Source: Acidobacteriota bacterium
GTDB lineage: Bacteria > Acidobacteriota > UBA6911 > RPQK01 > G965248645
NCBI GenBank assembly: GCA_965248645.1
Contig: OZ252113.1
Span: forward strand, 1,782,590-1,846,589
DNA: 64,000 bases
Direction of reading: 5' to 3'
Below the pieces are notes generated by a model. The model saw only the letters and a program-made list of their open reading frames with translations. It had not been told where the DNA came from and searched no databases. Below are positions 38,560 to 55,094 of the stretch, one piece after another. Position 1 is the first letter of the stretch; each line of letters starts with the position of its first letter. A program made the translations under genes and the position numbers.

Positions 38560-38900
38560 TTTTAAGAGAACGTTTAGTCGCATCCTTGTCTCTTGGCGTT
38601 GGTGCGCAGACTACCGATGACTTTGTCGTGTTGATCCAGCACTCGCCAAGGCTAAGGGAATTAGCTGTGAATTTTGCTAAACAAGTGGTCCAGGTGCCGA
38701 AGTTTGTCGAGCCGACCCTGCCTCCGTTAGAGAACAGGCCTGTACGGTTGTCTAAAATTTGAAGATTAGCAGCGATCAGGTTCGTACGAGACGGTGATCC
38801 CATGCTCAGTAAGCAAGTGCTCACCGTCTCGAAAACTCAGTGCAAAGCGATAGTAAAGACAGACTGGGTTAGCGATGAGTTGCGACGGAGAACGACGACC
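38560..38900. repeat. diverged interspersed repeat, copy C (about 75% identity to 41190-41420 over the core; contains a perfect 11-bp hairpin stem CGAGACGGTGA/TCACCGTCTCG)
   Basis: Hand alignment gives AGGTTCGTACGAGACGGTGATCCCA..CAGTAAGCAAGTGCTCA..GTAAAGACAGACTG versus AGGTTCGTATGAGATGGTGATTCCA..CAGCAAGCAAGTCATCA..GTAAAGGCAGATG. Minus-strand ORFs begin MSTCLLSMGSPSRTNL and MMTCLLNLESPSHTNL. Confidence 0.45.
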
Positions 38901-38971
38901 TGAATGCTCTATGAAGACTTAGAGAAGTCACCGCAACCGTTTGAACCTACTTGCTATTTCTATCTGAACGA

Positions 38972-39282
38972 CTAAGCTTTCAGGCGTGCTCCGATCGATC
39001 TGATAATCACTGCAAGAGCGGCAGCATTGATCAGAGTAGAAACTCCGGCAAGAATATTGGTGATGTGTCCCCCAACAGCTGGTATATTGCTTAAAGCACC
39101 ATATACAGAGGACAAGACGAGAGCTCCAAGTAGCACACTGACCTTATCAGAGTCATCGGTGGGATAACCTAAGACTAAGCCGAGAATCGCTAGCACGAGG
39201 CCAGCATAGGGAATTGAAACCCCAACTCCAACGACCAGGCCAGAAGCAGACCCAAAATGAGAACAATTTTGGGGAAATTCAT
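38972..39282 (-). CDS. small hydrophobic membrane protein; frame ambiguous
   Basis: An AAGGAG Shine-Dalgarno sequence lies 6 nt upstream of an ATG at 39282 (MNFPKIVLILGLLL..). That frame hits a stop after 30 codons, while the long ORF 38972..39358 is in a neighbouring frame. This implies a frameshift or a short peptide. Confidence 0.3.
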
Positions 39283-39538
39283 TGTGAACTCCTTGTTTAA
39301 TCAACCGTTGACAAGCAACAAGGAAACGATTGTGACTGATAGCCATAAGGAATTGCAACTCTAAGCATGCAACTTTTTTGGAATCATGCTAAGAGGCCTG
39401 GAGATAAGGACCCTTGTCTCAGCGCTGGCAGCCAGCACTGAAGAAGTCTTCAGTGCAAATGGATCCGAGGGTTTGCTCTGCGAAAAGGTGGTAGAAAAGC
39501 GCGTAATCCAACGTTAGGGTCTGCAGAGATTACAATCA

Positions 39539-40566
39539 ATGGGGTATCCACTGGACTCAGGTAACCACAACATCTTGTGGTTGGGCTCACGGGGCCTCGG
39601 CGTCCCAGTCGGCGACGATCGATCGATACGGCGTTGGGTCCACGGCGACTGCCTGCTGCACAAGGCGGTAGAAGAGTTTTCCCCGGCTGCGTGAGTTGCG
39701 CCGGTTGAAGCGGAACACAAACTCGTCGAGGTAGTAGTCCAGATGCTCGTGGCTAACCGCGCCTTGGTGCGTGCCCAGCAGCCAGCGCTTGAGCAACGAG
39801 ATCGCTTGGTGCACCCTCGGCAATAATTCCGAGGCCTGCTTGCGGCGGCCCGACAGAAAGACGGTGCGATGCTGGTAGCCCTTCTTCTCCAGCGGCTCGT
39901 AGCCCAGCCAGCCGTCGGTGTGCACCAAGCTTCCCGGCTCGACCGACTCCTCCACGAAGGGCATCAAACTGGCCGCCGATGCGTTCCGCAAGCGCTGCAT
40001 GCGGATCCGTCCTAGCCCGCGGCCTCTCCCTTCCGCGGCTATTTAAATCAATGCTTTACGCTCGTTCTGCCGGCCGCTAACACCCTCTTACTCAGCGCCC
40101 CAATAGGTCTCATCGACCTCGACTACGCCCGCCAATCGCTCCCGCCCCGGACGCACCATCGCTCGCCGCAGCTTGTGCATCCAGGTCCACGCAGTTTGAT
40201 ATCTGCCCAACCCGAGAACGCGCTGCAGACCCAGCGCGCTGACCCCGTTCTTTTGCGAAGTGACGTGCCAGATCGCCCGGAACCACAGCCGCAGCGGCTT
40301 ACGTGTGTCTTGGAAGATCGTGCCCGAGGTCACCGACGTCTGCCGCCCGCAGCGAGCGCATTCGAACCACACTTTGCGCACCGGCCAAGCCCGCTCATGC
40401 CCGCATCCCGGACAGCGGAAACCCTCCGGCCAGCGCAACGCGGACAGATAGTCGCGACAGGCCTCTTCGCTGGCGAAGCGTACCTCGAACTTGAGCAGGT
40501 CGCGTGGATAATCCTCCACGAAGGCACATACTACATCTTGGGGTCACCTGAGTCAAGTGGATACCA
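39539..40566 (-). mobile_element. IS1595-family insertion sequence, copy 1 (about 1.03 kb), flanked by an ATTACAATCA direct repeat
   Basis: Imperfect terminal inverted repeats are GGTATCCACTGGACTCAGGTAACC and GGTATCCACTTGACTCAGGTGACC. The element is near-identical to a second copy at 52353-53390. TTACAATCA occurs immediately outside both ends (8 bp is typical for the IS1595 family). Boundaries are uncertain by about 10 bp, because TACAA.CAATGG also precedes copy 2. Confidence 0.75.
39587..40519 (-). pseudogene. IS1595-family (ISXO2-like) transposase interrupted by in-frame stop codons
   Basis: The N-terminal zinc-ribbon part is CPGCGHERAW..FECARCG, and the C-terminal DDE part is ..SLVHTDGWLGY... 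The two ORFs are in the same frame and separated by two TAA codons. The linker looks shortened relative to what I recall of ISXO2-type transposases. Confidence 0.7.
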
Positions 40567-40769
40567 AATTACAATCATTCGTAACAAGGAGGCCAAGGGA
40601 AACCAACCTCCGGAATCAATATGAGGGATGTCGGTTAATACGAGGTTGGCTGGGTAGTAGGGAAAACGCCCTTATATGTCGTGCGGAACAACAATTGAGG
40701 CCAGTATGGCATTCTGTCCTAAATGTGGAGTATCTGAGCCCGCCGTGGCATGTGGAAAGGGTCCTTAAA

Positions 40770-41120
40770 GTGATTTGTCCTCAATGTAAGGCTGAATATA
40801 GGTCAGGGTTTACTGAATGCTCGGATTGTTAGGTGCCGTTGGTGGCAGAATTGCCAATGGAAGGGGAGTCACCAAGAGATCTAGAGCTACAGCAGAAGCG
40901 GCTCGGGCAAGGCCTGAATCTTGTCAGAGTCTTCGAAACGGAGAATCCTACAATCATTATGGTGGCGAAATCCCTATTGGAGGATGCTGGTATCGAATAC
41001 TTCTCATCAGGTGAACAGCTTCCATTTGGATTTAACCCTTTATCTGGATCTCTCGTGATCGGGGTTCGGCACGAGGAAGCGGAGGAAGCCAGAGAATTGC
41101 TGAAGAATCTGTCATGTTAA
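40770..41120 (+). pseudogene. zinc-ribbon + DUF2007-like small protein with an in-frame TAG at 40830-40832
   Basis: In one frame the sequence reads ..VICPQCKAEYRSGFTECSDC-TAG-VPLVAELP..VRVFETENPTIIMVAKSLLEDAGIEYF... The zinc-ribbon CPxC..CxxC-G-VPLV consensus expects Gly where the TAG sits. A GGAAAGGG Shine-Dalgarno sequence precedes the GTG at 40770. An additional upstream zinc knuckle (MAFCPKCGV) lies in another frame. Confidence 0.45.
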
Positions 41121-41189
41121 TCTCAGCGGAGCAGGTGTGCCCACGCGCGTGTGCCTGCCTGGTTGCTTTCTTCAGTGCGCGGACGTTGT

Positions 41190-41420
41190 CTCTCTCTGAT
41201 GGGCACAGGCTTGGTCCCGGAGGAGTCTCGCTGCTGAACTGCTTTGAGATGATCACGACCAACTCGGGATAGATTCTGCCGGAGAGCACGGGCGTACGCT
41301 GATCGAAACTGTTAGAACCAGTGCCGAATAGGTTCGTATGAGATGGTGATTCCAGGTTCAGCAAGCAAGTCATCAACGTGTCAAAAACCAGGGTGAACCC
41401 ATGGTAAAGGCAGATGTATG
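41190..41420. repeat. diverged interspersed repeat, copy B
   Basis: See copies A and C. Confidence 0.45.
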
Positions 41421-41535
41421 AGGGATAATCTAAGGCGGAAATAGATGACCTTGCATAGAGTGACTCCGTATACCAATTGTTGCTGTATCCCGCTTAACTT
41501 GACAGTACGACTGTAAGGTTTTAAAGGAACTTGTC

Positions 41536-42762
41536 TCATCGGTACCAATTGTAATGGAGACCCAGGGAGCGGTCCGCGAGGGGTAGTTTGATGCGGGCAC
41601 CGCCTTGAGCTGAGGATTGCTTGAGCGCGATCTCCACTTCAAGAGCTACCGCCACCCGGCGTCCGGAGTTCTTGGGTTCGTCCATTTCCCCCGCCACACA
41701 CTTCATGAGGTCATCCAACGAATAGACTGCTCCATAGGGTGGGACGAACTGCGGATCCGGCCAGGGCTTCTGGACGCGTTCTTTGCTCCCAGAAGGCGTA
41801 GTAACATCCTGCCAAAGTTGCCAGCGGCGCTGCTCATGAGTAAAGCTGATCTCCCCGTTGTCGCCGCTGATCCGTACTCCGGGGGCTCCTCGGCGGAAAT
41901 GAACCACCAATCCATTTTTCGTCACCATCATTCCTTGACCGACGAACTCGTTGCTACCTCTCTCGCGCCGAGGTTTGTCTCCCGTGCCACTGACCCAAGT
42001 CGGCGGGCTGTCTAGAAAATAAGACCAGTTCTGATGTTGTGCCCCCGGTCCCCAGGCCTCAATAGAAAGCACTTGTCCAATGGCCCCGCTAGTCACTAAT
42101 TCCTTGGCCTTCGCAAAAGAGGGATGAGTGGTGGTGATAGCTCCACAGCATAGGGGAATTCCTCGAGAGGCGCAGCTTTTCACCATCTGGTCGGCCTCCT
42201 CTAGCGTAAAGGCCATTGGTTTTTCCGTGAAAATGGCCTTAGCCCCTATTTCAGCCGCCTTGACAGTTAGAAAAGCACGCCCTTTAGTGTTTGTACAAAC
42301 AGCCACAATATCCAGCTGCTCCTTTTGCAGCATCTCGATAGCATCTGTGTAGAGAGCCTTCAGACCGTAGCGTTCACCGAAAACCTTTAAGCGCTTTTCG
42401 TTGCGGTCAGCACCAGCCACGAGGTCCACTTCAGGGCGCCCCCACAAAGCTTCGGCGTAGGAAGTAGGCAAGCCTTCGTTGCCCGGATGATCGTGATAGT
42501 AAAACTTTCGGTTAATATTCAACCGATCAGGATTAGGGCGATGGGGGTCTTCAACGCCGTAGGCGGGGTTCCAGTAAGAGCCTGGGCGGTCGTCTGCCCC
42601 CCTTTTAGCGAGATCGTACAGAAGACCCATCCAGCCCAGCCCAATGACGCCGGCCCGATATCTCAATTTGGAATCCAGGTTGGGCACGGCTATGCCCGGC
42701 ATAGACAAGCCCAAGGCAGCCCCACCTCCGAAAGTTGTCTTAATGAATTGCCGGCGAATCAT
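41536..42762 (-). CDS. Gfo/Idh/MocA-family oxidoreductase with twin-arginine signal peptide
   Basis: The TAT-like N-terminus MIRRQFIKTTFGGGAALGLS is followed by a Rossmann fold (GVIGLGWMG) and a GFO_IDH_MocA C-terminal domain. Confidence 0.8.
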   Translation of the reverse strand: MIRRQFIKTTFGGGAALGLSMPGIAVPNLDSKLRYRAGVIGLGWMGLLYDLAKRGADDRPGSYWNPAYGVEDPHRPNPDRLNINRKFYYHDHPGNEGLPTSYAEALWGRPEVDLVAGADRNEKRLKVFGERYGLKALYTDAIEMLQKEQLDIVAVCTNTKGRAFLTVKAAEIGAKAIFTEKPMAFTLEEADQMVKSCASRGIPLCCGAITTTHPSFAKAKELVTSGAIGQVLSIEAWGPGAQHQNWSYFLDSPPTWVSGTGDKPRRERGSNEFVGQGMMVTKNGLVVHFRRGAPGVRISGDNGEISFTHEQRRWQLWQDVTTPSGSKERVQKPWPDPQFVPPYGAVYSLDDLMKCVAGEMDEPKNSGRRVAVALEVEIALKQSSAQGGARIKLPLADRSLGLHYNWYR

Positions 42763-43449
42763 AATCTACCTCGCTCTGTTTGATGGTCTGCCTTCATCTG
42801 CCAGGCTCGAGAAGAGATCGTAACTCATCGCAGTTCTCGGGCAGGCTAAAACAATGCCCCTTATAGGCAATGTAGTTGAGGTCGACGAGCTCCGCTTCGC
42901 TCAGCAGGTCAATATAGCTGATAATCGTCATGTAAAGTTCGGATCTGATTTCCTGTGACCTCCTGTGATGAATGAACGAAATCTATCATCCCTACTGACC
43001 TTGTGTCCAAGATTTTCTTGTGATCTTTTAGGTGAAAAAGCCTCTGAATCGCTGGATTATCTAGGCGCTTTTCCGAAAACTGATCGGCAGAGCGACTCTC
43101 TGAGGGAACTGGGTAAGAAACACTTGTTTTTGGGCTGTTACAGTCCTGTCTTCTAACTGTCGCAGAATCAGCTATTTCGGCAAGGCCATTCAGGAGGGTT
43201 TTGGACAAACTATAATAAGACCGTCTGTATCGTTCCCTAACCGAAGCGTCGATATTGCTATACACTCTGAGTGCACGTTCAAGAAGATTCAGATCAATCG
43301 CGCCATTTCTTGGCCTGATTTTGTTGCTAAAGGTGCTTGCCAGCAGGCCCCCAGGATAGCTTGATGTACTCCTTGTTAGAAATAGAAAGATGAGGTACTT
43401 TGGGGTATAATAAAAAAATCTTCGAACCTTCAATAGGGGAAGCATAGTC

Positions 43450-46329
43450 ATGAAAGGACGCTTCGCTTTTTTCTTCAGCTTGGGTGTGCTTGCCACAGGG
43501 CTTTCAGGGAAAACATCAGCAGAAAACACGAGTTCTTCATTACCCACATTCGAAAAAGAGATTCTGCCCATCTTCGAGAAGAGCTGTCTGGCCTGTCACA
43601 GTGCCCAGAGTCCTCAGAGCGGCCTGGTTCTGGAGACGGTAGAGTCTCTCTTCCAAGGGGGAACAGTCAGTGGACCGGCAGTAATCGCTGGAGAGAGCAG
43701 CCGGAGTCCGCTGCTGCTCTATCTGAAGGGAGAGAAAGAGCCCAGAATGCCGCTGGACGCTCCTCTGCCGGAAGCGGAGATCACCCTGATTGCCCGCTGG
43801 ATAGACCAGCTCAAACCGGCTGGTCAGAAGGAAGTTGAGACCCAACTGGCTGGTGGAATAACCTCTGATCAAGACTTTGAAGAGTCAATCCGGCCCATCC
43901 TAGAGAAAAATTGCTTTTCTTGCCACAACGCCGAGACTCACCGCAGCGGTTTGGTACTCGAGACGGTCGAGTCGCTGCTTAAGGGAGGCGGTGCCGATGG
44001 TCCAGCTATTGTGGCGGGGAAAAGTAGGGAGAGTCCCCTGATTCTTCATCTGCGGGGAGACAAAGCCCCGCGCATGCCGCTGGAAGGCGTTCCTTTGGCC
44101 GAGGAGAAAATCACCCGGATTGCCAGCTGGATCGACGGTCTGGAGGTCTCGACCATAGCCCAGGTCAAGCCGAAACTGGACTGGCCCTGGATCAAACTCG
44201 AGCGTCCGGATGTTCCGCAGGTCCAACACCAGGAATGGGTAACGAATCCCATCGACGCTTTTATTTTAGCCAAGCTGGAAACCAAGAGCCTAGAGCCGGC
44301 ACCAGCGGTCTCCAAACGGGCTTTGCTGCGCCGCATCTCCTTCGATCTGACGGGTCTACCGCCTACACCGGAGGAGATGCAGCGATTCCTGCAGGATTCC
44401 TCGCCGGATGCTTATGAGCGGCAGATCGACCGGCTACTGGCCAGCCCTCACTACGGAGAACGCTGGGCACGGCACTGGTTAGATTTAGTGCGTTATGCCG
44501 ACACTAAGGGAGGATATTACGATCCGATCTACCCTCATATCTGGCGCTACCGGGACTACGTCATCCGGGCCTTCAATCAGGGTCGACCCTACGACCGCTT
44601 CATCCGGGAACAAATCGCAGGGGACAGCTTCCGCCCCTATGGCGCGGAAGGGAGAATTGCCTTGGGCTTCATGCGCGTGGGAGCACAAACTGAATCGGGA
44701 GGTCGCCGGGAGATCTTGGATGACCTGGTGGGCACCACCGGATCGGTGTTCCTGGGGATGACTGTGGCCTGTGCCCGCTGTCACGATCACAAGTTTGATC
44801 CCATTCCCCAGCGAGACTACTACCGGATGGAGGCCTTCTTTACCCCGATGAGCATTACGGGGCCGACCGCCCTACCCTTCACCGAATACGAGCTGCCCCA
44901 TCAAGAGCCAGAGAAATGGGAGAAAAAGGCCGAAGCCTGGCAAGCACTCTATTCAAAGTATTATGCGAGAGCAAAAGCGATTGTAGCTCAGTTCAAGGAA
45001 CGGGTGAGAAGAGAACGCTCCTTCCTATCCCCTGAGGACCTTAAGGACCGGGTGGTCTACGGAGACGTTTACGCCTCCTACCGAGTCAGCGCTTTCGAAT
45101 TACGCGAAGCCATGCAGAAGGGCCTGCTGTTTAGTAAGGCGGAACGGGATCTGTACAATCTCGCCCGCCGTTGTGTCTCCCAGGGTAGCCCCATGCATCC
45201 CGATCTATATGAGCCCAAGGCCTACTCGGCTTCCGACCCAGGAGGCAAGGATCTTCCCTCCACTCCTGACACCTACGTCCTGAAGGTGGGAAATCCAAAG
45301 GCTAGAGGAGAGGCTGTGGGACCAGGTTTTTTGAGTTCTGCGATCGGGAATTCCGACCCGGTCGACCTGACGGGAGGCGGTAGCCACCGCAAGTTGCTGG
45401 CCGAGTGGATCTCCAGTCCCGAGAATCCTCTAACGGCTCGGGTGATGGTCAACCGGATCTGGCAGCATCATTTTGGCGAAGGGTTGGTGCGCACGCCCAG
45501 CGACTTTGGCCAGAACGGTTCGGGAACCCTGCATCGGGAATTGATCGACTGGCTAGCCTCGGAGTTCATCGAGCAGGGGTGGAACATCCAGGCCATGCAC
45601 CGGCTCATACTCGGCTCCAGTCTCTATCGCCAATCGATGTACCACCCTCGGGACCAGGAGTTTGAAACGATCGACAGTGCCAATCGCTATCTTTGGAAGA
45701 TGGGGCCGATTCGTCTCGAGGCGGAGAGCATTCGCGACAGTATCCTAGCGGTTAGCGGAGAGCTGAATCGGGATATGGGTGGCCCTGCGGTTTTTCCCGT
45801 CATCGATGATGAACTACAGAAGCGAGCGCTCACTATCTGGGAAGCCTCTCCCCAGCAGGAAAGGAACCGTAGAAGCATTTACATGATGCAGAAGCGAGCC
45901 ACCCCGACCCCTTGGATGGCGGTCTTTGATGGCCCTAATCTGAACCAGAGCTGCGAGGTACGCGGGGTCACCACGGTGACGCCGCAGGTCTTTGCCTTGT
46001 TCAACAGTGAGTTCGTCCACCGGCAGAGCCGCCAGATGGCCGCTCGCATCCGTCGCCAAGTGGGAGCGGATCCTGAAAGACAGATCGAGCGGGCCTTTGA
46101 ACTGGCCCTTCAGCGTTTGCCCACCCAGGGAGAAAAAGAGGAGTTTCGAGCGCGGTTGGGAACCTCTGCAGCGGTGCCCCGACCAGACATGGCCTTCTTG
46201 GGCAAGCCGGAAGGTGCACCTATGCCCATCTCCCTAACGATAGCAGGAGACCAACCCGGGAGTCCGGGATCGCTGGCTGATCTATGCCTGGTTTTGTTTA
46301 ACGTCAACGAATTCATTTTCCTAGAATAG
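43450..46329 (+). CDS. PSD1-type protein number 2 (two PSCyt CxxCH-like domains + DUF1549 + DUF1553) without an adjacent DUF1501 partner
   Basis: The motifs CLACHS and CFSCHN occur in duplicated N-terminal modules. The C-terminal conserved block is LCLVLFNVNEFIFLE. The length is 959 aa. Confidence 0.85.
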   Translation: MKGRFAFFFSLGVLATGLSGKTSAENTSSSLPTFEKEILPIFEKSCLACHSAQSPQSGLVLETVESLFQGGTVSGPAVIAGESSRSPLLLYLKGEKEPRMPLDAPLPEAEITLIARWIDQLKPAGQKEVETQLAGGITSDQDFEESIRPILEKNCFSCHNAETHRSGLVLETVESLLKGGGADGPAIVAGKSRESPLILHLRGDKAPRMPLEGVPLAEEKITRIASWIDGLEVSTIAQVKPKLDWPWIKLERPDVPQVQHQEWVTNPIDAFILAKLETKSLEPAPAVSKRALLRRISFDLTGLPPTPEEMQRFLQDSSPDAYERQIDRLLASPHYGERWARHWLDLVRYADTKGGYYDPIYPHIWRYRDYVIRAFNQGRPYDRFIREQIAGDSFRPYGAEGRIALGFMRVGAQTESGGRREILDDLVGTTGSVFLGMTVACARCHDHKFDPIPQRDYYRMEAFFTPMSITGPTALPFTEYELPHQEPEKWEKKAEAWQALYSKYYARAKAIVAQFKERVRRERSFLSPEDLKDRVVYGDVYASYRVSAFELREAMQKGLLFSKAERDLYNLARRCVSQGSPMHPDLYEPKAYSASDPGGKDLPSTPDTYVLKVGNPKARGEAVGPGFLSSAIGNSDPVDLTGGGSHRKLLAEWISSPENPLTARVMVNRIWQHHFGEGLVRTPSDFGQNGSGTLHRELIDWLASEFIEQGWNIQAMHRLILGSSLYRQSMYHPRDQEFETIDSANRYLWKMGPIRLEAESIRDSILAVSGELNRDMGGPAVFPVIDDELQKRALTIWEASPQQERNRRSIYMMQKRATPTPWMAVFDGPNLNQSCEVRGVTTVTPQVFALFNSEFVHRQSRQMAARIRRQVGADPERQIERAFELALQRLPTQGEKEEFRARLGTSAAVPRPDMAFLGKPEGAPMPISLTIAGDQPGSPGSLADLCLVLFNVNEFIFLE

Positions 46330-46485
46330 GACAGTTTACTCAAGGAGACAGCCTCATGAGAAAGAACCCCTTTGATGTCATGCTGATAAGTTCGACCAGA
46401 CTTCCCCGTTTCAGAGTGACGGCGTGGAGCGACCTCAAGCATTGGTGTTCCGTAGTATGGATATAATAATACATACTACGAACAT

Positions 46486-46743
46486 TTGTATTTGTTTTAC
46501 TGTGCTCAGCTAATGCGCTTTCTCAAGAATTATTACTTTTTGGTGGGGAAGGTCGTGATGAATTTCTCGGTTGCCTCAATTGACCAACATATAGTTCAGA
46601 TTCTATCTGCAATAAACAGGGAACTTATGGAAACAAGTACAATATTAAAAGTATTTTTAGCGGATACGGAATTTACGGAATCGACGATAATAAGAAAAGT
46701 CCATGGAATCAATACTCTTCTGACAAGGAAGTTCCCGTGTTAA
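46486..46743 (+). CDS. hypothetical small protein in an AT-rich island (first of two overlapping ORFs)
   Basis: The ORF has about 33% GC against a background of about 56%. It ends with TAATG, overlapping the start of the next ORF. Confidence 0.3.
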   Translation: MYLFYCAQLMRFLKNYYFLVGKVVMNFSVASIDQHIVQILSAINRELMETSTILKVFLADTEFTESTIIRKVHGINTLLTRKFPC

Positions 46744-46892
46744 TGGATAGAGAAGGAAAGTTTTACGGATACTTTACAATAAACGATTATAGAAAGGACT
46801 CAATTAGTTTTTCCAGGAAGCTTAAAGAGATTTATAAACATTCAGCTGGAGACCTTGAATTGGTGAGAGAAGCACTTTGCAGTTCTTTTTAA
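46743..46892 (+). CDS. hypothetical 49-aa protein overlapping the previous ORF by ATG/TAA (TAATG)
   Basis: My translation is MDREGKFYGYFTINDYRKDSISFSRKLKEIYKHSAGDLELVREALCSSF. It is AT-rich and too short for the ORF track. Confidence 0.25.
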   Translation: MDREGKFYGYFTINDYRKDSISFSRKLKEIYKHSAGDLELVREALCSSF

Positions 46893-47417
46893 AAAACCCT
46901 TTCTACAGCATAGCCTACTTTACTATAGCAATAACCCACCATAGTTAAAAGTCTTGAGGCTCGGGCAATTTGTGGTAGTCTCAAGTGCAGTGTCTAGGGT
47001 ATTGGCTCGGACAATGTGCCTAAGGATAAGATGCTCTGGAAGTTCTGTAATTCTGTAATATGAAAAGAGCATCAAGCAACAAGACTTCATCAGTGAACAC
47101 GTCACAATAGAGGAAAGATCGGCGCGGGGGAGAGAGCGCGTCTGGAGAACCACGGCTTCCTCAGCCATGACAGGCACAGAATGTCCTTAAGCTAGAGTAG
47201 CAGCACGCGCAGCTGGTCGAAGGTCCTACACTTTCTGCAATGAGCCCAGAAGGGAGATCTGTTATGACTAAGTGTTGCACGGGCGAAAGGAAGATCCTTC
47301 CTAGGGGATAGGTGAGGTGAGCTTCACTTTGCCTGTATTTCTACCCAGTGCTAGTATTAATAATAATTGTAAAGCATGCTAAACGGCAGTACCTGATGTT
47401 AGCTGGAAGGTTCGCTA

Positions 47418-48596
47418 ATGAAGGACACCATCTGCGAGCTGCTCGCCTTTTATCTTACTCTGGTGATCTTTTGGTTTAGCGGTTGTTCACAAACTGCAGA
47501 GCTCGAGCAGAAGCAATCTAGTTACGAAGAAATACTTACGCGTGCCGAGCAAGGCGATGCCGAGGCCCAATGCAACCTGGGGAACATGTATCGCGATGGC
47601 AAAGGGGTTTCTCAAGACGATCAAGAAGCAGTCAAGTGGCACCGCAAGGCGAGCGGGGAAGGCTATGCCAAAGCTCAAAATAACCTGGGGAACATGTATC
47701 GCGATGGCAAAGGGGTTTCTCAGGACGACCAAGAAGCAGTCAAGTGGTACCGAAAGGCAGCTGAGCAAGGCTATGCCAAAGCTCAAAATAACCTGGGGAA
47801 CATGTACCGGGAGGGCTACGGTGTTCCTCAAGATGGCCAAGAGGCAGTCAACTGGTACCGCTATGCTGCCGAACAAGGTTATGTCGACGCCCAATATAAT
47901 CTGGGGCTTATGTACTACTACGAACGAGAGGGAGTCAGCCAGGACTACCAAAAAGCACTCAAGTGGTATCGAAAGGCCGTCGAGCAGGGAGATGCCGCCG
48001 CGGAATATGCTCTGGGGGTCATGTATGCCGAGGGCCAAGGCGTTGCTCAGGACTACCAAGAAGTAGCTAAGTGGTATCGCAAGGCCGCGAATCGAGGTCA
48101 TGCAACTGCCCAATATAATCTGGGGGTCATGTATGCCGAGGGCCAAGGCGTTGCCCAGGACTACCAAGAGGCCGTTAAGTGGTACCATTACGCTGCCGAG
48201 CAAGGCGATGCCAAGGCCCAATATGCTCTAGGGGTCATGTACGCCAAGAAGGCAGCTGAGCAAGGCGATGCTAAGGCCCAAAATAACCTGGGGAACATGT
48301 ACCTCGATGGTCACGGCATCCCTCAGGATGGTCAAGAAGCAGTGAAGTGGTACCGCAAGGCCGCCGAGCAAGGTGATCCCGATGCCCAGAGGCATCTGGG
48401 GGTCATGTATGCCATGGGCCAAGGTGTCCCACAGGACGACATACAGGCTCACATGTGGTGCAACCTAGCAGCTACCAACTTAACTGGAGAGGCAAGAGAA
48501 AAGGCCGTTGCATTACGAGACTTTCGAGCTGAACAGATGACTCGGGATCAGATCGTTGAGGCTGAGCGGCTAGCCCGGGAGTGGAAACCAAAATAA
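47418..48596 (+). CDS. Sel1-like repeat (SLR/TPR-like) protein, about 9 tandem 36-aa repeats
   Basis: The unit AQNNLGNMYRDGKGVSQDDQEAVKWYRKAAEQGYAK recurs. The N-terminus is hydrophobic. Confidence 0.8.
   Translation: MKDTICELLAFYLTLVIFWFSGCSQTAELEQKQSSYEEILTRAEQGDAEAQCNLGNMYRDGKGVSQDDQEAVKWHRKASGEGYAKAQNNLGNMYRDGKGVSQDDQEAVKWYRKAAEQGYAKAQNNLGNMYREGYGVPQDGQEAVNWYRYAAEQGYVDAQYNLGLMYYYEREGVSQDYQKALKWYRKAVEQGDAAAEYALGVMYAEGQGVAQDYQEVAKWYRKAANRGHATAQYNLGVMYAEGQGVAQDYQEAVKWYHYAAEQGDAKAQYALGVMYAKKAAEQGDAKAQNNLGNMYLDGHGIPQDGQEAVKWYRKAAEQGDPDAQRHLGVMYAMGQGVPQDDIQAHMWCNLAATNLTGEAREKAVALRDFRAEQMTRDQIVEAERLAREWKPK
47574..48480 (+). repeat. tandem 108-bp coding repeats (Sel1 units); the first two units (47574-47789) are nearly identical at the DNA level
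   Basis: Direct inspection shows a period of 108 bp, starting with AACCTGGGGAACATGTA. Confidence 0.7.
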
Positions 48597-48810
48597 TGGA
48601 TACCAGGCCCCATTAAATATCGATACCTACAGTTGTGGGATTAGTGTTAGGAAACGCCAGAACGAGCCGGACCGAGCTGGTGGTGCAACTCCCGTACAGA
48701 GCCAATCCAATAGATTAGAGAGTGCAGGATAAGAGGACTAAGCAGAAATAACTCTTCGATCGAAGCTTCGCAAAGTCCAGCGAGCCTAAGATGTTTCCTG
48801 GATCATAAGC

Positions 48811-49272
48811 TCATGGAACTTGTGCCGCGTCTGTTCCCGGGTCGAAGCCGGGTTCGAGCGCGTCGCGGAGACGCTTTACGATGTCCTCTCCACCTTGAGA
48901 TCGGTCACCTTGAGATCGGTCACCTTGAGATCGGTCGAATCCCGACATGAGGTCACGGAACTTTTCACGCGCCTCTTCCTGGGTCATTTCGCCGGCTTCA
49001 ACCGCCTGGCGGAGACGCTCTCTGAAGGCTCTAACGAAAGCCAGTTCGTTCGTCTTGGCAACGTGCTTCTCGAGGGCGATCATCATGGTTCTGGCTTGCC
49101 CCAGAGTAAGCTCACCTGCCTCGACGCCTGCACTGAGTCGCATGCGAACTGCCATGTAGTCGGGGTCTTGAGCATCGGCCAGACCCGGAGGCAGAAGAGT
49201 CATGGCGCATAGCAGAGTGGATATAGCTAGCCACCGCGAGGTGTTGGGGATGGGTTTCGTTGATACGATCAT
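48811..49272 (-). CDS. hypothetical secreted protein with DRSQG x3 tandem motif
   Basis: A signal peptide is present (..LLCAMTLLPPGLADA). A 15-bp tandem repeat TCGGTCACCTTGAGA lies at about 48886-48940. Confidence 0.5.
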   Translation of the reverse strand: MIVSTKPIPNTSRWLAISTLLCAMTLLPPGLADAQDPDYMAVRMRLSAGVEAGELTLGQARTMMIALEKHVAKTNELAFVRAFRERLRQAVEAGEMTQEEAREKFRDLMSGFDRSQGDRSQGDRSQGGEDIVKRLRDALEPGFDPGTDAAQVP

Positions 49273-49735
49273 ACTGAACCCCCGTTCAAAAAAGTCCTTA
49301 CCGGATCCAGCTCCCTATCACGTTAGGTAGATGCCAGCGGATCAAACCTCTCCAGCAGACACATTGCAATTGTAAGTGAACCTATGGAGCATAGTCAAAT
49401 CAGAAGGATGGTGTTTAGGATCCACTGATGTCGCTCGACTATCAGATTCTGCGGAAAATCAGGCTTCGGAATCCATGAGGCACGAACGACTGAGTAGTGC
49501 GTGAATTCACATGCCGCAATCAGGGAAAATTGAAGAAACAGTTTTCCCTTGGACGAACTTTCGAGGGCGATTAGCCGGGGAGTGATGGGTAAAAAGCTGG
49601 AATTCAATATCTTCCCGCTCCAGTTTCATAAGGATTTTCCCCAACGCCAAGAGATTCAAAACTAAATAATTCGTCTCAGGACAGGAGCTAGGATCAATAT
49701 GTTATCCATCGGTTCGGCTCTCCACAGGCGGCCAC

Positions 49736-50554
49736 TCATGTCGAGTGTGGCAGTCCCTCATTGAGTCCAACGAGAAGAGGTTTTCTTTTAGGAGGGGCGT
49801 TTTCCACGAGTCTCTGTGGCCACTCGGGGATCAGACCGACTGGTTTGGCCCACCCAGGACGATAGGAGTAGAAGAGGGCTCGGCGGATCTGATCAGTGAA
49901 GTTCAGGCCGCCCGCATGCACAGTGGAACAGTGAAACAGCACTGCTGTGCCTGCCTTTGCCAGGACGATCTTTGCTTTTTCCTCTAAATACTCGAAATTG
50001 CTGCCAGGGATCAGATGACACTGTCTGTGGCTACGGGGAACGACCCACAGTGGACCGTTTTCAAAAGTTAGATCGCAAAGATAGAAGCCAACGTTTACCC
50101 AGGAAGCAGAAGTATTCCTGAAGTCATCTTCGTATTCAGCGCCCCCGTAATCCATGTGAAGCATCTGGCGAGGTTTTTCCGCGATCTCTTTCCTTGGTTT
50201 GGGATAATAAACACCTTTGAAAAACCTGATGTCGTCACCATAGCAGAGACGAATCATTTGCAGAACTTTTGGATTTTCGATGAGTTTCGCTACGGATGGA
50301 GTCACCCAGGAGTGAGAGCTTTTTTCTAGGATAGTCCTTGTTTCCTTTGGCCCAAGCTCAATATCTCGGTCGAGAGTGGTGCGATCGAACTCGCGATTTA
50401 GCTTCACCAGGACCTCTTCATCGATAGCTCCGGGTACGATCAAAAAGCCATTGATCTCAAAGTAGACTCGTCGTTCCGTAAGGGGCATCGACAAGAACTT
50501 GTCTTTGATCACTCGTGCTTCCAGCTCTTCTTTCAAATGGCCGATATTTCTCAT
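49736..50554 (-). CDS. phytanoyl-CoA dioxygenase (PhyH) family protein
   Basis: The HxD..H context (HMDYGG ... HCSTVHAGGLN) matches the family, and the protein resembles the other two PhyH-like genes in the window. Confidence 0.75.
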   Translation of the reverse strand: MRNIGHLKEELEARVIKDKFLSMPLTERRVYFEINGFLIVPGAIDEEVLVKLNREFDRTTLDRDIELGPKETRTILEKSSHSWVTPSVAKLIENPKVLQMIRLCYGDDIRFFKGVYYPKPRKEIAEKPRQMLHMDYGGAEYEDDFRNTSASWVNVGFYLCDLTFENGPLWVVPRSHRQCHLIPGSNFEYLEEKAKIVLAKAGTAVLFHCSTVHAGGLNFTDQIRRALFYSYRPGWAKPVGLIPEWPQRLVENAPPKRKPLLVGLNEGLPHST

Positions 50555-51168
50555 ATTAACTTTGAATATGGGTTACTCTGAGTCTCTCTATGAGGACCGA
50601 TCAAAATCTATCAGTCCTCCAAACCTTGTGTCAACGATTCTCTCGTCATTTTCCCGCTGCAAACAGCCGCTGATTTTAAATCTGTTGAATGCGCTTACTA
50701 TCGTCACGGATCTTTCACCGTATCGGCTCACCAAGCGGTTTTGGTTGAACATGAACTCGTTTCTTCCCTCTTTGTTCATCGAAGAATGCTTCGGGATCGG
50801 GTTCTCGATTGGGTTGATCCCGTGGCGCCTGCAGTTTTTATGCAGCCGACCGGCCATGCCACTCTGGGCTTGAATGCCGGTCCGCCGGTGGCGCGTATTC
50901 GCATCCGGAGTCTACACATCTATCGGTCCGGCGAAATCCGGGCTTCCGGCCACCACATAGCCGCGGCTCGATTATCGTAGTGTGGAATTGTAAAGCGCTT
51001 CAGGAACACTTCAAAGAAAAGGTGCCTCTTTGTAGGATATACTGGAAAATGAAGTGGTATTGTCTGACTTCTGGGTAGTCCTAGTGGCTAGCTGTCAGCA
51101 TTGCTTTGAGCCCCAGGGGTTCTTAAGAATCAGAGCACAGGTACACATCCCTTTGATTCAGACGACTA

Positions 51169-52388
51169 ATGAAGCGCACAGCGGACGTGGTCATTGTTGG
51201 TGGAGGGGTCACCGGGCTGAGTACGGCCTGGAATCTGAAGGAGAACGGGGTTGACCGCGTTGTTGTGCTCGAGCGGCACCGGATCGGTTCCGGCCAGTCG
51301 GGTCGTGCGGCTGGCATTGTCCGTACACTTGTACCTCACCCCTTGGTAGCGTCTTGGCAGTATCAGTCACAACAATTCTTCAATACGTTCGTGGAACGGA
51401 CTGGACTTTCGATCGAGGTCAATCAGGTTGGCTACGTTCTCATCGCAGGTTGTGCCGAGGCAAAAGGGCTGGGGCAAGCGGTTGAAGTGAGCCGGCAGCT
51501 GGGCACCAATTGTGATCACATTAGCGTGGATGAAGCTGGCCAAGTACAACCGGGTATCCAGCAGGGCGCCGAGCTGGCATATGCGTTTGAACCAGGGGCG
51601 ATTTATGTAGACCCGATGCCAGCCACTCATGCCATAGCGCTGGCAGCACGGCGGGCTGGCGTAGAGATTCGGGAGGGGTGTGGCGTACAAAAGTGCTGCT
51701 GGACAGATCCCAGGTCGCAGGTGTTTCCACTCGTGAAGGCCCTTGGTTTGCACCCGCGGTAATGATTGCAACTGCCGCCTGGAGCCGAAGCCAACTGCAG
51801 CAGGTGGGACTCAAGTTACCTGTCTATCCGCATCGAGCAGAGATGGCCTTTTTCCATGTTCCGCTGGAGAAAGAGTTGCGTCTGATCCGTATTCTCTCTG
51901 ACACAAGATCACAACTTTACTTGCGTCCGGAGGGGCGACTGCAGATGTTTGTCGGTTGGCGGGAAGGAGACCTGGTCCGGCAGCCGGAAGACTGTGTGCC
52001 CGAAAATCCGGACGATTATCGGGAGACCGTCCATTTTGATCGGCTCGTTCAGATGCATAATCGACTATCCCAGACATTGCCTTTCATGGCGCGAGGATTC
52101 GCCAATCGCAGCTATGCGTGTGTGTACGACTACACCCCGGACGGGCAGCCGATCCTTGATGCCGCAGGGTCTACAGGGTTGTATTCCGCAATTGGTTTCA
52201 GCGGTGGAGGTTTCTCTACCGCTCCCTGCGTCGGTAGGACCATGGCAAAATTTATCGCGAGTGGGAAAAAACCACAAGAGATCGAGTGGCTGCGACTCAG
52301 TCGCTTCGCTGAGGGAGACCTAATTCACTGGAACAACCTGGGCCTTCTTCAAAATACAACCAATGGGGTATCCACTGGACTCAGGTAA
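51169..52388 (+). pseudogene. FAD-dependent oxidoreductase (DAO family, glycine/sarcosine oxidase-like) with a frameshift near 51700-51760; the 3-prime end abuts IS1595 copy 2
   Basis: The N-terminal FAD motif is VVIVGGGVTGLSTAW. Two overlapping ORFs in different frames together cover about 394 aa. The C-terminal codons run into the IS terminal repeat. Confidence 0.7.
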
Positions 52389-53390
52389 CCACAACATCTT
52401 GTGGTTGGGCTCACGGGGCCTCGGCGTCCCAGTCGGCGACGATCGATCGATACGGCGTTGGGTCCACGGCGACTGCCTGCTGCACAAGGCGGTAGAAGAG
52501 TTTTCCCCGGCTGCGTGAGTTGCGCCGGTTGAAGCGGAACACAAACTCGTCGAGGTAGTAGTCCAGATGCTCGTGGCTAACCGCGCCTTGGTGCGTGCCC
52601 AGCAGCCAGCGCTTGAGCAACGAGATCGCTTGGTGCACCCTCGGCAATAATTCCGAGGCCTGCTTGCGGCGGCCCGACAGAAAGACGATGCGATGCTGGT
52701 AGCCCTTCTTCTCCAGCGGCTCGTAGCCCAGCCAGCCGTCGGTGTGCACCAAGCTTCCCGGCTCGACCGACTCCTCCACGAAGGGCATCAAACTGGTCGC
52801 CGATGCGTTCCGCAAGCGCTGCATGCGGATCCGTCCTAGCCCGCGGCCTCTCTCTTCCGCGGATACTTAAATCAATTCTTTACGCTCGGTCTGCCGGCCG
52901 CTCACACCCTCTTCCTCAGCGCCCCAATAGGTCTCATCGACCTCGACTACGCCCGCCAATCGCTCCCGCCCCGGACGCACCATCGCTCGCCGCAGCTTGT
53001 GCATCCAGGTCCACGCAGTTCGATAGCTGCCCAACCCGAGAACGCGCTGCAGACCCAGCGCGCTGACCCCGTTCTTTTGCGAAGTGACGTGCCAGATCGC
53101 CCGGAACCACAGCCGCAGCGGCTTACGTGTGTCTTGGAAGATCGTGCCCGAGGTCACCGACGTCTGCCGCCCGCAGCGAGCGCATTCGAACCACACTTTG
53201 CGCATCGGCCAAGCCCACTCATACCCGCATCCCGGACAGCGGAAACCCTCCGGCCAGCGCAACGCGGACAGATAGTCGCGACAGGCCTCTTCGCTGGCGA
53301 AGCGTACCTAGAACTCGAGCAGGTCGCGTGGATAATCCTCCACGAAGGCACATACTACATCTTGGGGTCACCTGAGTCAAGTGGATACCA
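52353..53390 (-). mobile_element. IS1595-family insertion sequence, copy 2; no flanking direct repeat detectable
   Basis: The copy is about 99% identical to copy 1, with about a 10-bp indel. The left flank is AAAATACAACCA and the right flank is GTTATCCGATCA. Confidence 0.75.
52411..53262 (-). pseudogene. IS1595-family transposase, copy 2 (shared in-frame TAA plus an extra nonsense change removing the N-terminus)
   Basis: The ORFs 52867..53262 and 52411..52824 are the same as in copy 1. Copy 2 reads GAA where copy 1 has its first TAA, but carries CTA/TAG at about 53308. Confidence 0.7.
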
Positions 53391-54940
53391 GTTATCCGAT
53401 CATTTACAATTGGGACGGTGCACCCCACGGCTATTCCCAGTACCCGCAGTCCCTCGATCAGTTTCTTGAAAAGACTTTTGCTCCCATTAAAAACACTCAG
53501 GTAAAAGCCTTGTTCTGGTGCATCGGTGAGCATGAAGCAACCTGGAACTCCAAAGACTTACCCATGGCTGGGGATAGTGAGAATCGAATCTACGCTTCCC
53601 TACGTTCCATGACTCACAATGAGAATATCCGCTCCCTGCTGGAACGAGGAGAAAATCCTTACCAGGCCATGGTTCAACGAGGGCATGAGCTGGGGATCGA
53701 TGTGTATGTGTCCATCCGAATGAATGACAATCACTTGCATGGGATCCAATTGGAAGATATGGCCAAGACCGAGATGTGGGGTCTGACCGAACTTCGCAAG
53801 CAGCACCCCGAATGGTGCCTCGGTGCCGAGAACACTCCCAAGTGGTTTGCTGCTTCTTGGAACATGGCTATTCCGGAAGTACGCCAGCACCGATTCCAGT
53901 ACATTCGGGAAGCAGTGGCCGCAGCTGACTGGGACGGTGTTGAACTGGACTGGCAACGCCATGGGTTTCATTTACCCGCCGATCACGCCTATCGATTGCG
54001 TTACACCCTGACGGATCTGCAGCGGGCCATTCGCCACGAGACTCAGGCGATTGCCGACAAACGAGAGAAGCCGTTTTGGGTGGCAGTGCGCGTGAGTACG
54101 ACCCAGGAGTCTTGTCGGAGAATCGGCTACGATCTGGAAACCTGGATTCAGGAGGGGCTGTGCGACATCCTGACGGCCGGGGGAGGCTCAGGCACCGACG
54201 CTGGTATCGAGGTAGAAGGCTTTCGACAAATGGTTGACGGAACCCCCATCCGCTTCCATACCGGTTTCGACAGTCGCTTCGCAGGCCCCTACCAAGGACT
54301 GGAAGAGGAAAAAGCATCGCTCCACTCCTGGTTTCGTGGATTGGCCGCAGGCTACTGGGAGCGCGGGGCCCACGGTATGTACGTTTTCAACTGGCATGCC
54401 AACGAGCGGACCCGGCGAGACCTACTAACCTCTATCGGTGCCGTCGAGACATTGAAGAGAACGAACAAGCTGTACTCTGCGCTTTACCGTTTTGACCGGG
54501 CCAAGGAGGGCCCCTGGGTAGGCTCCGACTTGAATGATCGAATCCACGCAGAAACCCCGGTTTCCCTCTATCGGACACTTACCGATGAAGGACCAAAATT
54601 TCACGTCCCGACCTATGACGAAGTCGTCGAAGAGGCGAGGGCAGGACAGTTGAAGAAAGTCGAACTGCGGATTGAGCTGAAACAATTTTCGCCGACCGAT
54701 CGAGTGCGAGTACAACTGGACGGAAAAGAGTTGACCAGTCCCCAGGTACGGAATGTCTCTGCGGAAAATCCGGATGACCCTTCGGATGTGAGCGAAAGCA
54801 GTTGGCTGGTCTGGTCACTTCGACCGGAGGAGGCCGACCGAGGAATGCACGAAGTAAAAGTCCAATTAATCAAGCGCAACCCAAGGATCAAACCGCCCCT
54901 AGTAATAGAGCATGTGGAAATCCAGGTGCATTATGCTTAA
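53381..54940 (+). CDS. GHL-like TIM-barrel hydrolase paralog, 5-prime end replaced by the IS1595 terminus (signal peptide region missing)
   Basis: The protein aligns to 59861..61534 from about residue 38 of that paralog (PIICFYHDGRHP.. vs YPIIYNWDGAPHG..). The annotated ATG lies inside the IS terminal repeat. The motifs are QRGHELG and WDGVELDW. Confidence 0.6.
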   Translation: MDTSYPIIYNWDGAPHGYSQYPQSLDQFLEKTFAPIKNTQVKALFWCIGEHEATWNSKDLPMAGDSENRIYASLRSMTHNENIRSLLERGENPYQAMVQRGHELGIDVYVSIRMNDNHLHGIQLEDMAKTEMWGLTELRKQHPEWCLGAENTPKWFAASWNMAIPEVRQHRFQYIREAVAAADWDGVELDWQRHGFHLPADHAYRLRYTLTDLQRAIRHETQAIADKREKPFWVAVRVSTTQESCRRIGYDLETWIQEGLCDILTAGGGSGTDAGIEVEGFRQMVDGTPIRFHTGFDSRFAGPYQGLEEEKASLHSWFRGLAAGYWERGAHGMYVFNWHANERTRRDLLTSIGAVETLKRTNKLYSALYRFDRAKEGPWVGSDLNDRIHAETPVSLYRTLTDEGPKFHVPTYDEVVEEARAGQLKKVELRIELKQFSPTDRVRVQLDGKELTSPQVRNVSAENPDDPSDVSESSWLVWSLRPEEADRGMHEVKVQLIKRNPRIKPPLVIEHVEIQVHYA

Positions 54941-55094
54941 TTTGCTCAAATGGAATATGTGGGCTACTACGAATTGATCATACATCAGGGAACCTCACAG
55001 TAACTTAGCTGCAAGGTCGTATGAGAAATATTCAAATTAGACATAGCATTGGCCTTGGTAGAGCAGTGGCTCTGCTTCAAGGAGGTTCGGAGGC

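Follow-up and report, generated by a model that had tools for sequence, protein, structure and literature searches.

Fossil IS1595-family copies in an Acidobacteriota genome, one of them probably joined to a GHL-like gene duplicate by a route other than transposition

The window analysed here, 64,000 nucleotides of an Acidobacteriota genome (contig OZ252113.1), contains two IS1595-family copies in direct orientation, 12.8 kb apart (39539-40569 and 52363-53390) and 98.4% identical. One copy is flanked by a direct repeat of the kind left by transposition. The other has none and abuts a GHL-like gene that has lost its 5' end. The question raised by the locus is how the second copy reached this state, and whether its own transposase was responsible.

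The direct repeat extends, at an offset of 12,824, from 39531 (39539 without the left flank) to 40566 and from 52355 (or 52363) to 53390, with 16 internal mismatches. A 24-nt inverted repeat, GGTATCCACT(G/T)GACTCAGGT(A/G)ACC, occurred exactly four times in the window against an expectation of zero. The element was 1,031 bp long, and its two 24-nt inverted repeats showed 2 mismatches. The repaired transposase translation from the window matched DDE_Tnp_IS1595 (PF12762, 7e-30) and, at residues 21-64, Zn_ribbon_IS1595 (PF12760, 1.3e-12), and an intact relative, 99% identical, matched the IS1595 family transposase model NF033547 with 213 bits (cutoff 75). In the passages of PMC8101967 on this family, which cite Siguier 2009, 8-bp duplications are usual, the transposase combines a zinc finger with a DDE domain, and an N-terminal zinc ribbon is found in all IS1595 groups except IS1016. 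The window element resembles the family in its length of ~1 kb (family members span about 0.7-1.2 kb), its single transposase with zinc ribbon and DDE_Tnp_IS1595 domain, its terminal inverted repeats and its 8-bp duplication; however, neither window copy is functional: both carry stops, and one has a clipped end.

The ends were defined from ~100 related copies, which read ATGGGG...CCCCAT with a duplication of 8 bp and gave the consensus (A)AT(G/T)GGGTATCC...GGATACCCCAT(T). Variation in the terminal 1-3 nt, which are ATG in some copies and ATT in others, at times with one more A or T, leaves the exact ends ambiguous by 1 nt. A direct repeat of at least 8 bp was present in 83 of 101 related copies. 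The same IS was found intact in metagenome-assembled genomes of Bryobacterales (Acidobacteriota), where it has been amplified to more than 50 copies, at 98-99% nucleotide identity; its single transposase frame, of ~314 codons, is open there and interrupted by stops in both window copies. The element probably belongs to the ISSod11 group. This group is marked by a catalytic DDHK, an ER4R7 motif and termini that read nnnGcnTATC. The IS end reads ATGGGGTATC and the protein reads ...PRVHQAISLLKRW...DEFVFRFNRR, which would be consistent with the group. The C-terminal ...RVH...E-x3-R-x2-R stretch of the transposase presumably corresponds to the same DDHK+ER4R7 signature.

The features of copy 1 were as follows.

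39531-39538, no strand: left target-site duplication of copy 1, TACAATCA, the same 8-mer as at 40570-40577
39539-40569, minus strand: IS1595-family element copy 1, full length (1,031 bp), ends ATGGGG...CCAAAT, 24-nt terminal inverted repeats
39587-40519, minus strand: copy 1 transposase pseudogene, GTG start, in-frame TAA at 40088-40090 and 40043-40045
40570-40577, no strand: right target-site duplication of copy 1, TACAATCA, a perfect match to the left 8-mer

The initial annotation had described copy 1 as a simple transposition with a 10-bp repeat, and the event was borne out by the perfect 8-bp duplication on either side. The longer repeat, ATTACAATCA, is indeed present at both flanks, but only 8 bp of it, TACAATCA, are duplicated target; the other two bases are the palindromic AT with which the IS itself ends. 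The insertion site, with the right duplication (40570-40577) and its flank, was also found in two other assemblies (L079 and L080). Judged from these flanks, copy 1 represents a simple insertion that has stayed undisturbed. The transposase gene is a pseudogene in both copies, a point absent from the initial annotation.

Copy 2 and its left neighbour comprised the following features.

51169-52388, plus strand: FAD-dependent oxidoreductase (DAO family) pseudogene, frameshift near 51688-51693, 3' end from IS copy 2
52355-52362, no strand: 8 bp adjoining copy 2 on its left, TACAACCA, presumably the half of the original target duplication that survives
52363-53390, minus strand: IS1595-family element copy 2, left end intact (ATGGGG), right end without the last 3 nt
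52411-53343, minus strand: copy 2 transposase pseudogene, TAG at 53308-53310 and TAA at 52867-52869, the TAA common to copy 1

As claimed earlier, the flanks of copy 2 are unrelated: none of the registers tried gave a direct repeat of 7-10 bp around it. Its left end was likewise correctly placed over the last codons of the FAD oxidoreductase. The ORF at 51678-52388 has a DAO domain, and its last 8 codons and stop (NGVSTGLR*, 52363-52388) are encoded within copy 2. The identical IS-derived tail is present in two gene calls from the database (P0121 and P0245). DAO homologues end 6-12 residues past a W-x-N motif, which is the position of the IS. No IS-free DAO 3' end was found, and for this reason the right-hand duplication of copy 2 is one that we infer. 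The frameshift near 51688-51693 had not been described before. The DAO orthologue of the second strain lacks 146 nt instead, equal to window positions 51594-51739.

The right neighbour of copy 2 was resolved into two overlapping features.

53381-54940, plus strand: 5'-truncated GHL-like ORF, 519 codons, whose GTG start and first 3 codons the IS inverted repeat supplies
53388-54963, plus strand: partial copy (1.57 kb) of the intact GHL at an ectopic site, beginning at codon 40 and ending 23 nt beyond the stop

Full-length homologues (P0001 and P0242) are 555 aa long and start with M(S/N)LSRRAFLRAG..., which contains a twin-arginine motif. The window GHL aligned with them from residue 40-41 onward. 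Replacement of the 5' end, including the Tat signal, by the IS was thus upheld, but 39 codons are missing and not ~37. No start codon or signal peptide for the truncated GHL was found outside the IS, and no 8-bp repeat was found around copy 2, so that the two observations named in the initial annotation as evidence against its reading were not made. One 90%-identity cluster contained both 519-aa and 555-aa members, both reported on a 3,761,457-bp contig. Its member P0241 is the window ORF, and P0242 is identical to the window ORF over the shared part; the intact GHL of the window's own genome is known as protein only, and we infer its placement on the same contig. The second strain carries GHL in both forms, full-length (L001, 26x coverage) and truncated (L078, 25x), recovered from one sample. 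The gene order Gfo-GHL-FAD_binding_6 recurs in a Fuerstiella metagenome-assembled genome, and the GHL fragment in the window includes the first 31 nt of FAD_binding_6, the gene that overlaps the GHL stop at the original locus. By this gene order, the intact GHL locus, a conserved Gfo-GHL-FAD_binding_6 operon, is ancestral, and the window GHL is an ectopic duplicate rather than a sole copy damaged in place. GHL function is not lost, because an intact Tat-exported copy is present elsewhere in the genome.

The two GHL copies of the second strain showed no differences in 1,573 nt, while 5 differences were found between the strains. An S/R polymorphism at the junction codon follows the strain and not the locus. 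At position 53390 (equivalent to 40566), this strain has A in both IS copies and in both GHL copies, whereas the other strain has C at all four places. Since the GHL copies are identical within each strain, the comparison indicates that gene conversion maintains the identity of the fragment with its intact paralogue. The IS copies have exchanged sequence in this way too: five derived sites, including the TAA stop, are present in window copies 1 and 2 and absent from the orthologous copy 2 of the second strain, and one of the five is also absent from its copy 1. A further repeat in the window showed the same pattern.

43517-46378, plus strand: repeat that recurs at a second locus, covering PSD1 gene 2 from just past the signal peptide to ~50 nt past the stop

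The first 1,261 nt of this repeat are 100% identical at the two loci of the second strain and differ from the window at 5 sites. The repeat is context only and no part of the IS. Concerted evolution of dispersed paralogues by gene conversion is known from duplicated tuf genes and from the rRNA operons of enterobacteria. The GHL and PSD1 pairs are alike in being identical within a genome and different between strains; for GHL, however, one partner is a headless and probably unexpressed fragment. The GHL ORF would therefore be preserved by conversion from the functional copy and not necessarily by selection.

The right junction of copy 2 bears directly on the question of mechanism. The last 3 nt of the IS terminus are AAT in copy 1 and (C/A)AT in ~80 relatives, and they are replaced by the GHL sequence GTT in copy 2 of both strains. 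The junction reads GGATACC-A-GTTATCC in the window and GGATACC-C-GTTATCC in the second strain; the equivalent sequences are GGATACCAAAT in copy 1 and ...CGCCCCGTTATCC at the full-length GHL locus. The clipped end is on the side of the transposase 5' end, and copy 2 joins GHL at a CC(C) microhomology, with 53388-53390 common to GHL. The missing duplication and truncated neighbour had been taken as the signature of an adjacent deletion or of recombination between IS copies. In that form the interpretation was not supported: the tip has lost 3 nt and is joined at microhomology, and the IS-GHL junction does not look like the work of the transposase, because either process would keep the terminus intact.

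Adjacent deletions are classical for IS1. With IS-adjacent deletions of the IS1, IS903, IS26 and Tn5 type, the locus shares an IS without duplication adjoining a truncated gene; those deletions leave the exact terminus, whereas here 3 terminal nt are missing, the join is at microhomology and the truncated gene is a redundant duplicate. A transposase-mediated deletion, by intramolecular transposition into a resident GHL with AAT changed to GTT later by conversion or mutation, is nevertheless a coherent account of the absent duplication and the truncated gene. IS1595 is considered related to IS1, going by the title of Siguier 2009 (cited in PMC8101967). The junction has the length of an intact IS end plus GHL from ATCC on, and a junction of AAT followed by ATCC could have had 2 of the last 3 nt overwritten by gene conversion; the IS end and GHL match there at 5 of 7 positions. 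Conversion tracts do reach the junction, as seen from the strain-specific A/C at 53390 in both GHL copies, and an IS1595-family element at the same locus in the sister strain shows an adjacent loss of 8.5 kb with intact ends and no duplication. However, the account needs an extra step in which two of three terminal bases became exactly those of GHL, identically in two strains, while microhomology-mediated joining predicts the CC(C) overlap directly. It also leaves unaccounted the abrupt right edge of the GHL fragment (54963), where no IS is present. We consider such a deletion unlikely.

Homologous recombination between two direct IS copies, one in the DAO 3' end and one at GHL codon 40, with deletion of the DNA between them, would produce the mismatched flanks of copy 2. 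Copies 1 and 2 do recombine according to the conversion signal, and ~18% of related copies in other genomes lack a duplication. A recombinant would keep both termini, however, so that the 3 missing nt would need a secondary overwrite; no reciprocal or parental form was seen, and, apart from a 325-nt tract that is the same as in copy 1, the variant sites along copy 2 gave no clear mosaic of two parents. This origin is very improbable.

The explanation that we favour, as probably correct, is that both copies are fossils and that copy 2 arose by insertion followed by joining to a GHL duplicate without the transposase. Copies 1 and 2 would be remnants of one IS1595-family IS with a transposase of ~310 aa, both inserted before the sampled strains split. 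Copy 2 would have begun as a simple insertion in the last codons of the DAO-family gene, with TACAACCA as the surviving half of its duplication. A later illegitimate recombination at the 2-3-nt CC(C) microhomology, not made by the transposase, would then have cost the IS its last 3 nt and its right-hand duplication and fused it to GHL codon 40. It could have proceeded by deletion of host DNA between the IS and a pre-existing duplicate, or by capture of the 1.57-kb fragment at a break at the IS end. Afterwards the GHL fragment and the IS pair would each have been homogenised by gene conversion. One observation appears to count against this history, which leaves it unaccounted: TACAACCA equals the copy 1 duplication at 7 of 8 positions, and a flank match of at least 7/8 between unrelated copies was found empirically in ~0.1% of pairs.

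The capture route can also be stated in a stricter form, in which an IS-end break, left for instance by abortive transposase cleavage, lost 3 nt to resection and was repaired by copying 1.57 kb from the intact GHL locus, with the copy then joined to the flank already there. No host gene would then have been deleted, and the fragment would be a templated insertion between DAO and a creatininase gene. This agrees with two abrupt boundaries, IS-free or clipped, and with a fragment that includes the first codons of the gene next to GHL at the intact locus. Immediately to its right, C TACTACGA ATTGA agrees at 6 of 8 positions with TACAACCA, the duplication expected to have been lost, and this sequence would bring DAO to a stop in frame two codons later, giving a tail of normal length. 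That match is statistically weak (~2% by chance with offsets), and two mismatches are many for a divergence of ~1-2%. Moreover, the DAO-creatininase synteny was not found in a relative with a DAO 66% identical, and the PSD1 duplicate has similar boundaries with no IS nearby, which hints at a general duplication or conversion process. We regard the strict form as improbable. A broader suggestion is that the clipped IS end may mark a break that captured the mature-protein part (1.57 kb) of a distant gene, that the headless copy links IS-IS with gene-gene recombination, the base at 53390 appearing to have passed through both, and that a very recent inter-phylum transfer of the IS is implied; the host has 53% GC and the IS 62%, and the host synteny is of Fuerstiella type, planctomycete-like in look. 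This suggestion is tentative and, on balance, doubtful.

Between the copies lies a block that had been called deletable.

40578-52354, no strand: intervening block, 11.8 kb, bracketed by the two direct IS copies

It contains Gfo/Idh/MocA, PSCyt/PSD1 gene 2, an AT-rich stretch, a Sel1-repeat gene, PhyH and the DAO pseudogene. The copies are indeed direct repeats that recombine, but the few assemblies that could be compared showed no loss of the 12.8-kb block. The region from 43274 to 62214 is collinear with the second strain (L078) at 95-99% identity, and in L079 collinearity continues leftwards as far as 40244. Should the block be lost in future, this would happen by homologous recombination of the ordinary kind, between the two 1-kb repeats in direct orientation. 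A composite transposon of the two copies was considered and rejected: copy 1 has its own complete duplication on both sides, and no matching 8-mer was found at the clipped right end of copy 2, the outer one.

The junctions of copy 2 are identical in the second strain and copy 1 occupies the same site in two other assemblies, so the arrangement is old and fixed. Neither copy is able to move by itself, because of the stops in both transposase genes and the clipped end of copy 2. The locus is a product of ordinary genome wear and not of a new mechanism. For annotation, pseudogene or relic is the appropriate status of both transposase genes, of the DAO gene and of the GHL ORF of 519 codons. With its 1-kb IS copies in direct orientation, its repeats of 1.6 and 2.9 kb that recur at a second locus and its losses specific to single strains, the region is a hotspot of rearrangement, so that long-read assemblies can differ or be wrongly joined here. 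An IS without a duplication beside a truncated gene is, on its own, no proof of a deletion made by the transposase; the tip of the element and the paralogues of the truncated gene should be checked.

Two direct copies of an IS1595-family element were identified in the window, offset by 12,824 nt (39531/39539-40566 versus 52355/52363-53390) and differing at 16 internal positions (~98.4% identity). The copies and their flanks, one with a direct repeat and one without, were described accurately in the initial annotation. Both copies end in the 24-nt inverted repeat GGTATCCACT(G/T)GACTCAGGT(A/G)ACC, which occurs exactly four times in the window versus zero expected. The minus-strand frame of the element gives a protein of ~310 aa with Zn_ribbon_IS1595 (1.3e-12) and DDE_Tnp_IS1595 (7e-30) domains, and an intact relative of this transposase scored 213 bits against NCBIfam NF033547 (IS1595 family transposase; cutoff 75). 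Neither window copy retains a working transposase gene: the frame of copy 1 is interrupted by TAA at 40088-90 and 40043-45, that of copy 2 by TAG at 53308-10 and, at 52867-69, by the TAA that the two copies share.

Features of the two elements and the repeats near them
39539-40569, copy 1, ends ATGGGG...CCAAAT
39531-38 and 40570-77, target duplication of copy 1, TACAATCA
43517-46378, PSD1 repeat, 2.86 kb, dispersed repeat shared with a second locus; contigs L001, L078, L080
51169-52388, pseudogene of the FAD oxidoreductase (DAO)
52363-53390, copy 2, direct repeat of copy 1
53388-54963, repeat of the GHL-like gene (GHL), 1.57 kb, shared with a second locus; contigs L001, L078, L080

A scan with the repaired transposase, taking one genome per species, gathered 76 loci. 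The frame is open in more than 50 copies from the Bryobacterales MAG CBDDCH01, at 99% amino acid and ~98% nucleotide identity to the window element; four further Bryobacterales genomes carry copies at 81-91% identity. Direct repeats of at least 8 bp were found at 83 of 101 end pairs of related copies. The commonest solution over these pairs was an 8-bp duplication with ends (A)AT(G/T)GGGTATCC...GGATACCCCAT(T), in agreement with PMC8101967 (citing Siguier 2009), where the IS1595 family is described as making duplications of 8 bp and as having a transposase with zinc-finger and DDE parts. On one Bryobacterales contig (L019, 1004-3072), two elements lie head to tail about 8 bp apart (...CCCCATAT ACCGTGAA ATGGGG...), forming a tandem dimer.

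Copy 1 is a simple insertion. The 10-bp repeat ATTACAATCA first reported around it is present; its two bases beyond the real 8-bp duplication are the element's terminal AT, which is self-complementary. A composite transposon reading of the pair was rejected because copy 1 carries its own duplication. In two other assemblies (L079 and L080 12193-14465), copy 1 occupies this site too and shows the same duplication, but it is cut to its first 326 nt, so that the repeat is shorter there. The remaining 326 nt adjoin another IS1595-family element, unrelated and 1.95 kb long, which has inverted repeat GGGGATTATAAATAATAC, intact ends and no target duplication. Both assemblies lack 8.5 kb corresponding to window 31766-40243 (a 368-aa ORF, PSD1 gene 1, DUF1501 and the rest of copy 1), and this loss in the sister strains looks like a real IS-adjacent deletion.

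The left terminus of copy 2 is intact: ATGGGG at 52363 follows TACAACCA, which is in-frame sequence from the 3' end of the DAO-family gene. The element supplies the final eight codons and the stop of ORF 51678-52388, and the resulting NGVSTGLR tail is also present in the public-assembly gene calls P0121 and P0245. Since DAO homologues terminate 6-12 residues past a conserved W-x-N motif, a few native codons were lost at most. The window gene carries a frameshift near 51688-51693 and its orthologue in strain 2 a different lesion, a 146-nt deletion, which suggests that selection on DAO was relaxed before the strains split. No IS-free DAO 3' end was found in JGI metagenomes with an exact 22-mer of that end. 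In a relative with a 66% identical DAO, the gene is followed by PhyH and other transposases, and downstream synteny was uninformative.

The octamer TACAACCA (52355-52362) matches the copy 1 duplication TACAATCA (39531-39538) at 7/8 positions, and agreement of at least 7/8 was seen in ~0.1% of pairs when flanks of unrelated copies were compared. The match could stem from target preference, from coincidence or from a tandem arrangement since lost. Extending the comparison to CAAAA TACAACCA versus CAAAT TACAATCA (copy 1 right end and duplication) gave 11/13 matches, which was judged too weak to claim the remains of a tandem dimer or circle junction on the left side of copy 2, despite the true IS-8 bp-IS tandem in L019.

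Right-end junctions of the two copies and the corresponding GHL sequence
Copy 1: ...GGATACCAAAT, then duplication
Copy 2, window: ...GGATACC-A-GTTATCCG
Copy 2, second strain: ...GGATACC-C-GTTATCCG
Full-length GHL gene, second strain: ...CGCCC-C-GTTATCCG

Comparison of the four junctions showed that the final 3 nt of the element are absent from copy 2. The join falls within a 2-3-nt CC(C) overlap, with GHL sequence from codon 40 on; the tip is thus clipped at a microhomology. No 7-10 bp direct repeat was found around copy 2 when every 3-8 nt register at each end was tried, and no start codon or signal peptide for the GHL ORF lies outside the element, so neither finding that would have refuted the initial annotation was made. 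The TACAA in the right flank was rejected as a duplication; it is GHL coding sequence and is present at the intact locus too. An exchange of flanks with the IS copy that lies 2.6 kb upstream from intact GHL on L001 was also rejected, as the flank 8-mers do not pair. Promoter-like hexamers TTGACT-17-TAGTAT at the IS end (window 53352-53410) point into the transposase gene, and hybrid hexamers TGGATA-17-TACAAT span the IS-GHL junction; both are consensus matches only. An outward promoter for truncated GHL was discarded, having just a 9/12 consensus match and a predicted transcription start downstream of the GTG.

The best homologue of window GHL is P0001, a 99% identical protein of 555 aa whose N-terminus, MSLSRRAFLRAG..., carries a twin-arginine motif. 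Its locus in strain 2, L001, matches the window in three places only: the IS (96%), the GHL stretch 53388-54963 (99.7%) and the PSD1 gene from 43517 onwards (99.6%). Two forms occur in the GHL cluster: P0241 has 519 aa and equals the window ORF, P0242 has 555 aa, and the contig reported for each is 3,761,457 bp long; the full-length GHL of the window genome is known as a protein only. In strain 2 (sample ERZ25067264), the 555-aa form is on L001 (26x) and the 519-aa form on L078 (25x). Window 43274-62214 has a collinear counterpart in L078 at 95-99% identity, and the DAO-IS and IS-GHL junctions are the same in both. The copy 2 junctions are therefore fixed in two strains, and the arrangement is older than their split, a point on which the initial interpretation needs correcting.

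A Fuerstiella MAG with a 64% identical GHL has the order Gfo-GHL-FAD_binding_6, which matches L001 and marks it as the ancestral context. The window fragment stops 23 nt beyond the GHL stop codon and holds the first 31 nt of FAD_binding_6, because that gene overlaps the GHL stop at the original locus. Together with the ancestral L001 context, this shows that window GHL derives from the original locus. The truncated GHL, initially read as a truncated neighbour of the IS, is a redundant partial duplicate of a gene that also exists in a full-length 555-aa form. A 557-aa GHL10-like paralogue (59861-61534, minus strand; 22% identical to truncated GHL) corresponds, in size and family, to the gene after FAD_binding_6 in Fuerstiella. 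A single ancestral gene cluster may therefore have been split into the window locus and the intact-GHL locus.

Over the 1,573-nt GHL repeat, the two strain 2 copies are identical to each other, and there are 5 sites at which the window departs from them. At the protein level, truncated GHL in the window equals its own genome's full-length copy, including the junction codon (S in the window strain, R in the other). The first 1,261 nt of the PSD1 repeat follow the same pattern, identical within a genome and different between strains, which indicates concerted evolution of both repeats through gene conversion. Both begin just past the signal-peptide coding part and end 23-50 nt past the stop, taking in the first codons of the other locus's next gene. 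Five derived IS sites, among them the TAA stop, are common to window copies 1 and 2 and absent in the orthologous copy 2 of strain 2; one of them, IS position 4 (40566 and 53390), is ancestral in strain 2's copy 1 as well. The 3' 325 nt of the window copies are identical. These shared derived sites are sequence signals of conversion, and the common TAA stop therefore shows exchange between copies and is no evidence that a dead element transposed. On a 3x contig from another sample (L080, 1-6470), Gfo-PSD1 gene 2 is joined to DUF1501-SSF-YggT-BNR_2 instead of the AT-rich stretch (window ~46378), breaking 22 nt into a DUF1501 start. Either recombination between the identical PSD1 repeats or an error of assembly would explain this join.

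Copy 2 would first have been flanked by a TACAACCA duplication, and a non-transposase joining event would then have removed its tip and the right-hand duplication. Deletion of host DNA beside the IS and capture of the GHL fragment at a break are both possible; to the right of the fragment, only 6/8 positions agree with the duplication expected to have been lost, which is not significant. The initial annotation had proposed an IS-mediated adjacent deletion or recombination between IS copies. The missing duplication and truncated neighbour it cited were confirmed, but a transposase-made deletion or an IS-by-IS crossover should leave an exact terminus, and a clipped one was found. Either would fit only if 2 of the final 3 IS bases had afterwards been overwritten by conversion from intact GHL, an extra step that is possible because conversion demonstrably reaches 53390. 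The clipping at microhomology indicates that the mechanism at copy 2 was probably not transposase-mediated.

The proposal that the 12.8-kb block between the copies is deletable is sound in principle, given 1-kb direct repeats of 98.4% identity that demonstrably recombine; no deletion variant was seen among the few assemblies available. The element has 62% GC versus 52.7% for the window. Compared with loci L002-L077, it shares 98-99% nucleotide identity with the intact element present in more than 50 copies in the Bryobacterales genome, where its flanks have 59% GC. No other window DNA matched those flanks. The gene order of the window's GHL operon, like the best named homologues, suggests a host among Fuerstiella-like planctomycetes; if the host does belong there, the IS was probably transferred between phyla recently. 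The two elements are an ordinary fossil pair in a region prone to rearrangement, and their arrangement is old and has become fixed.
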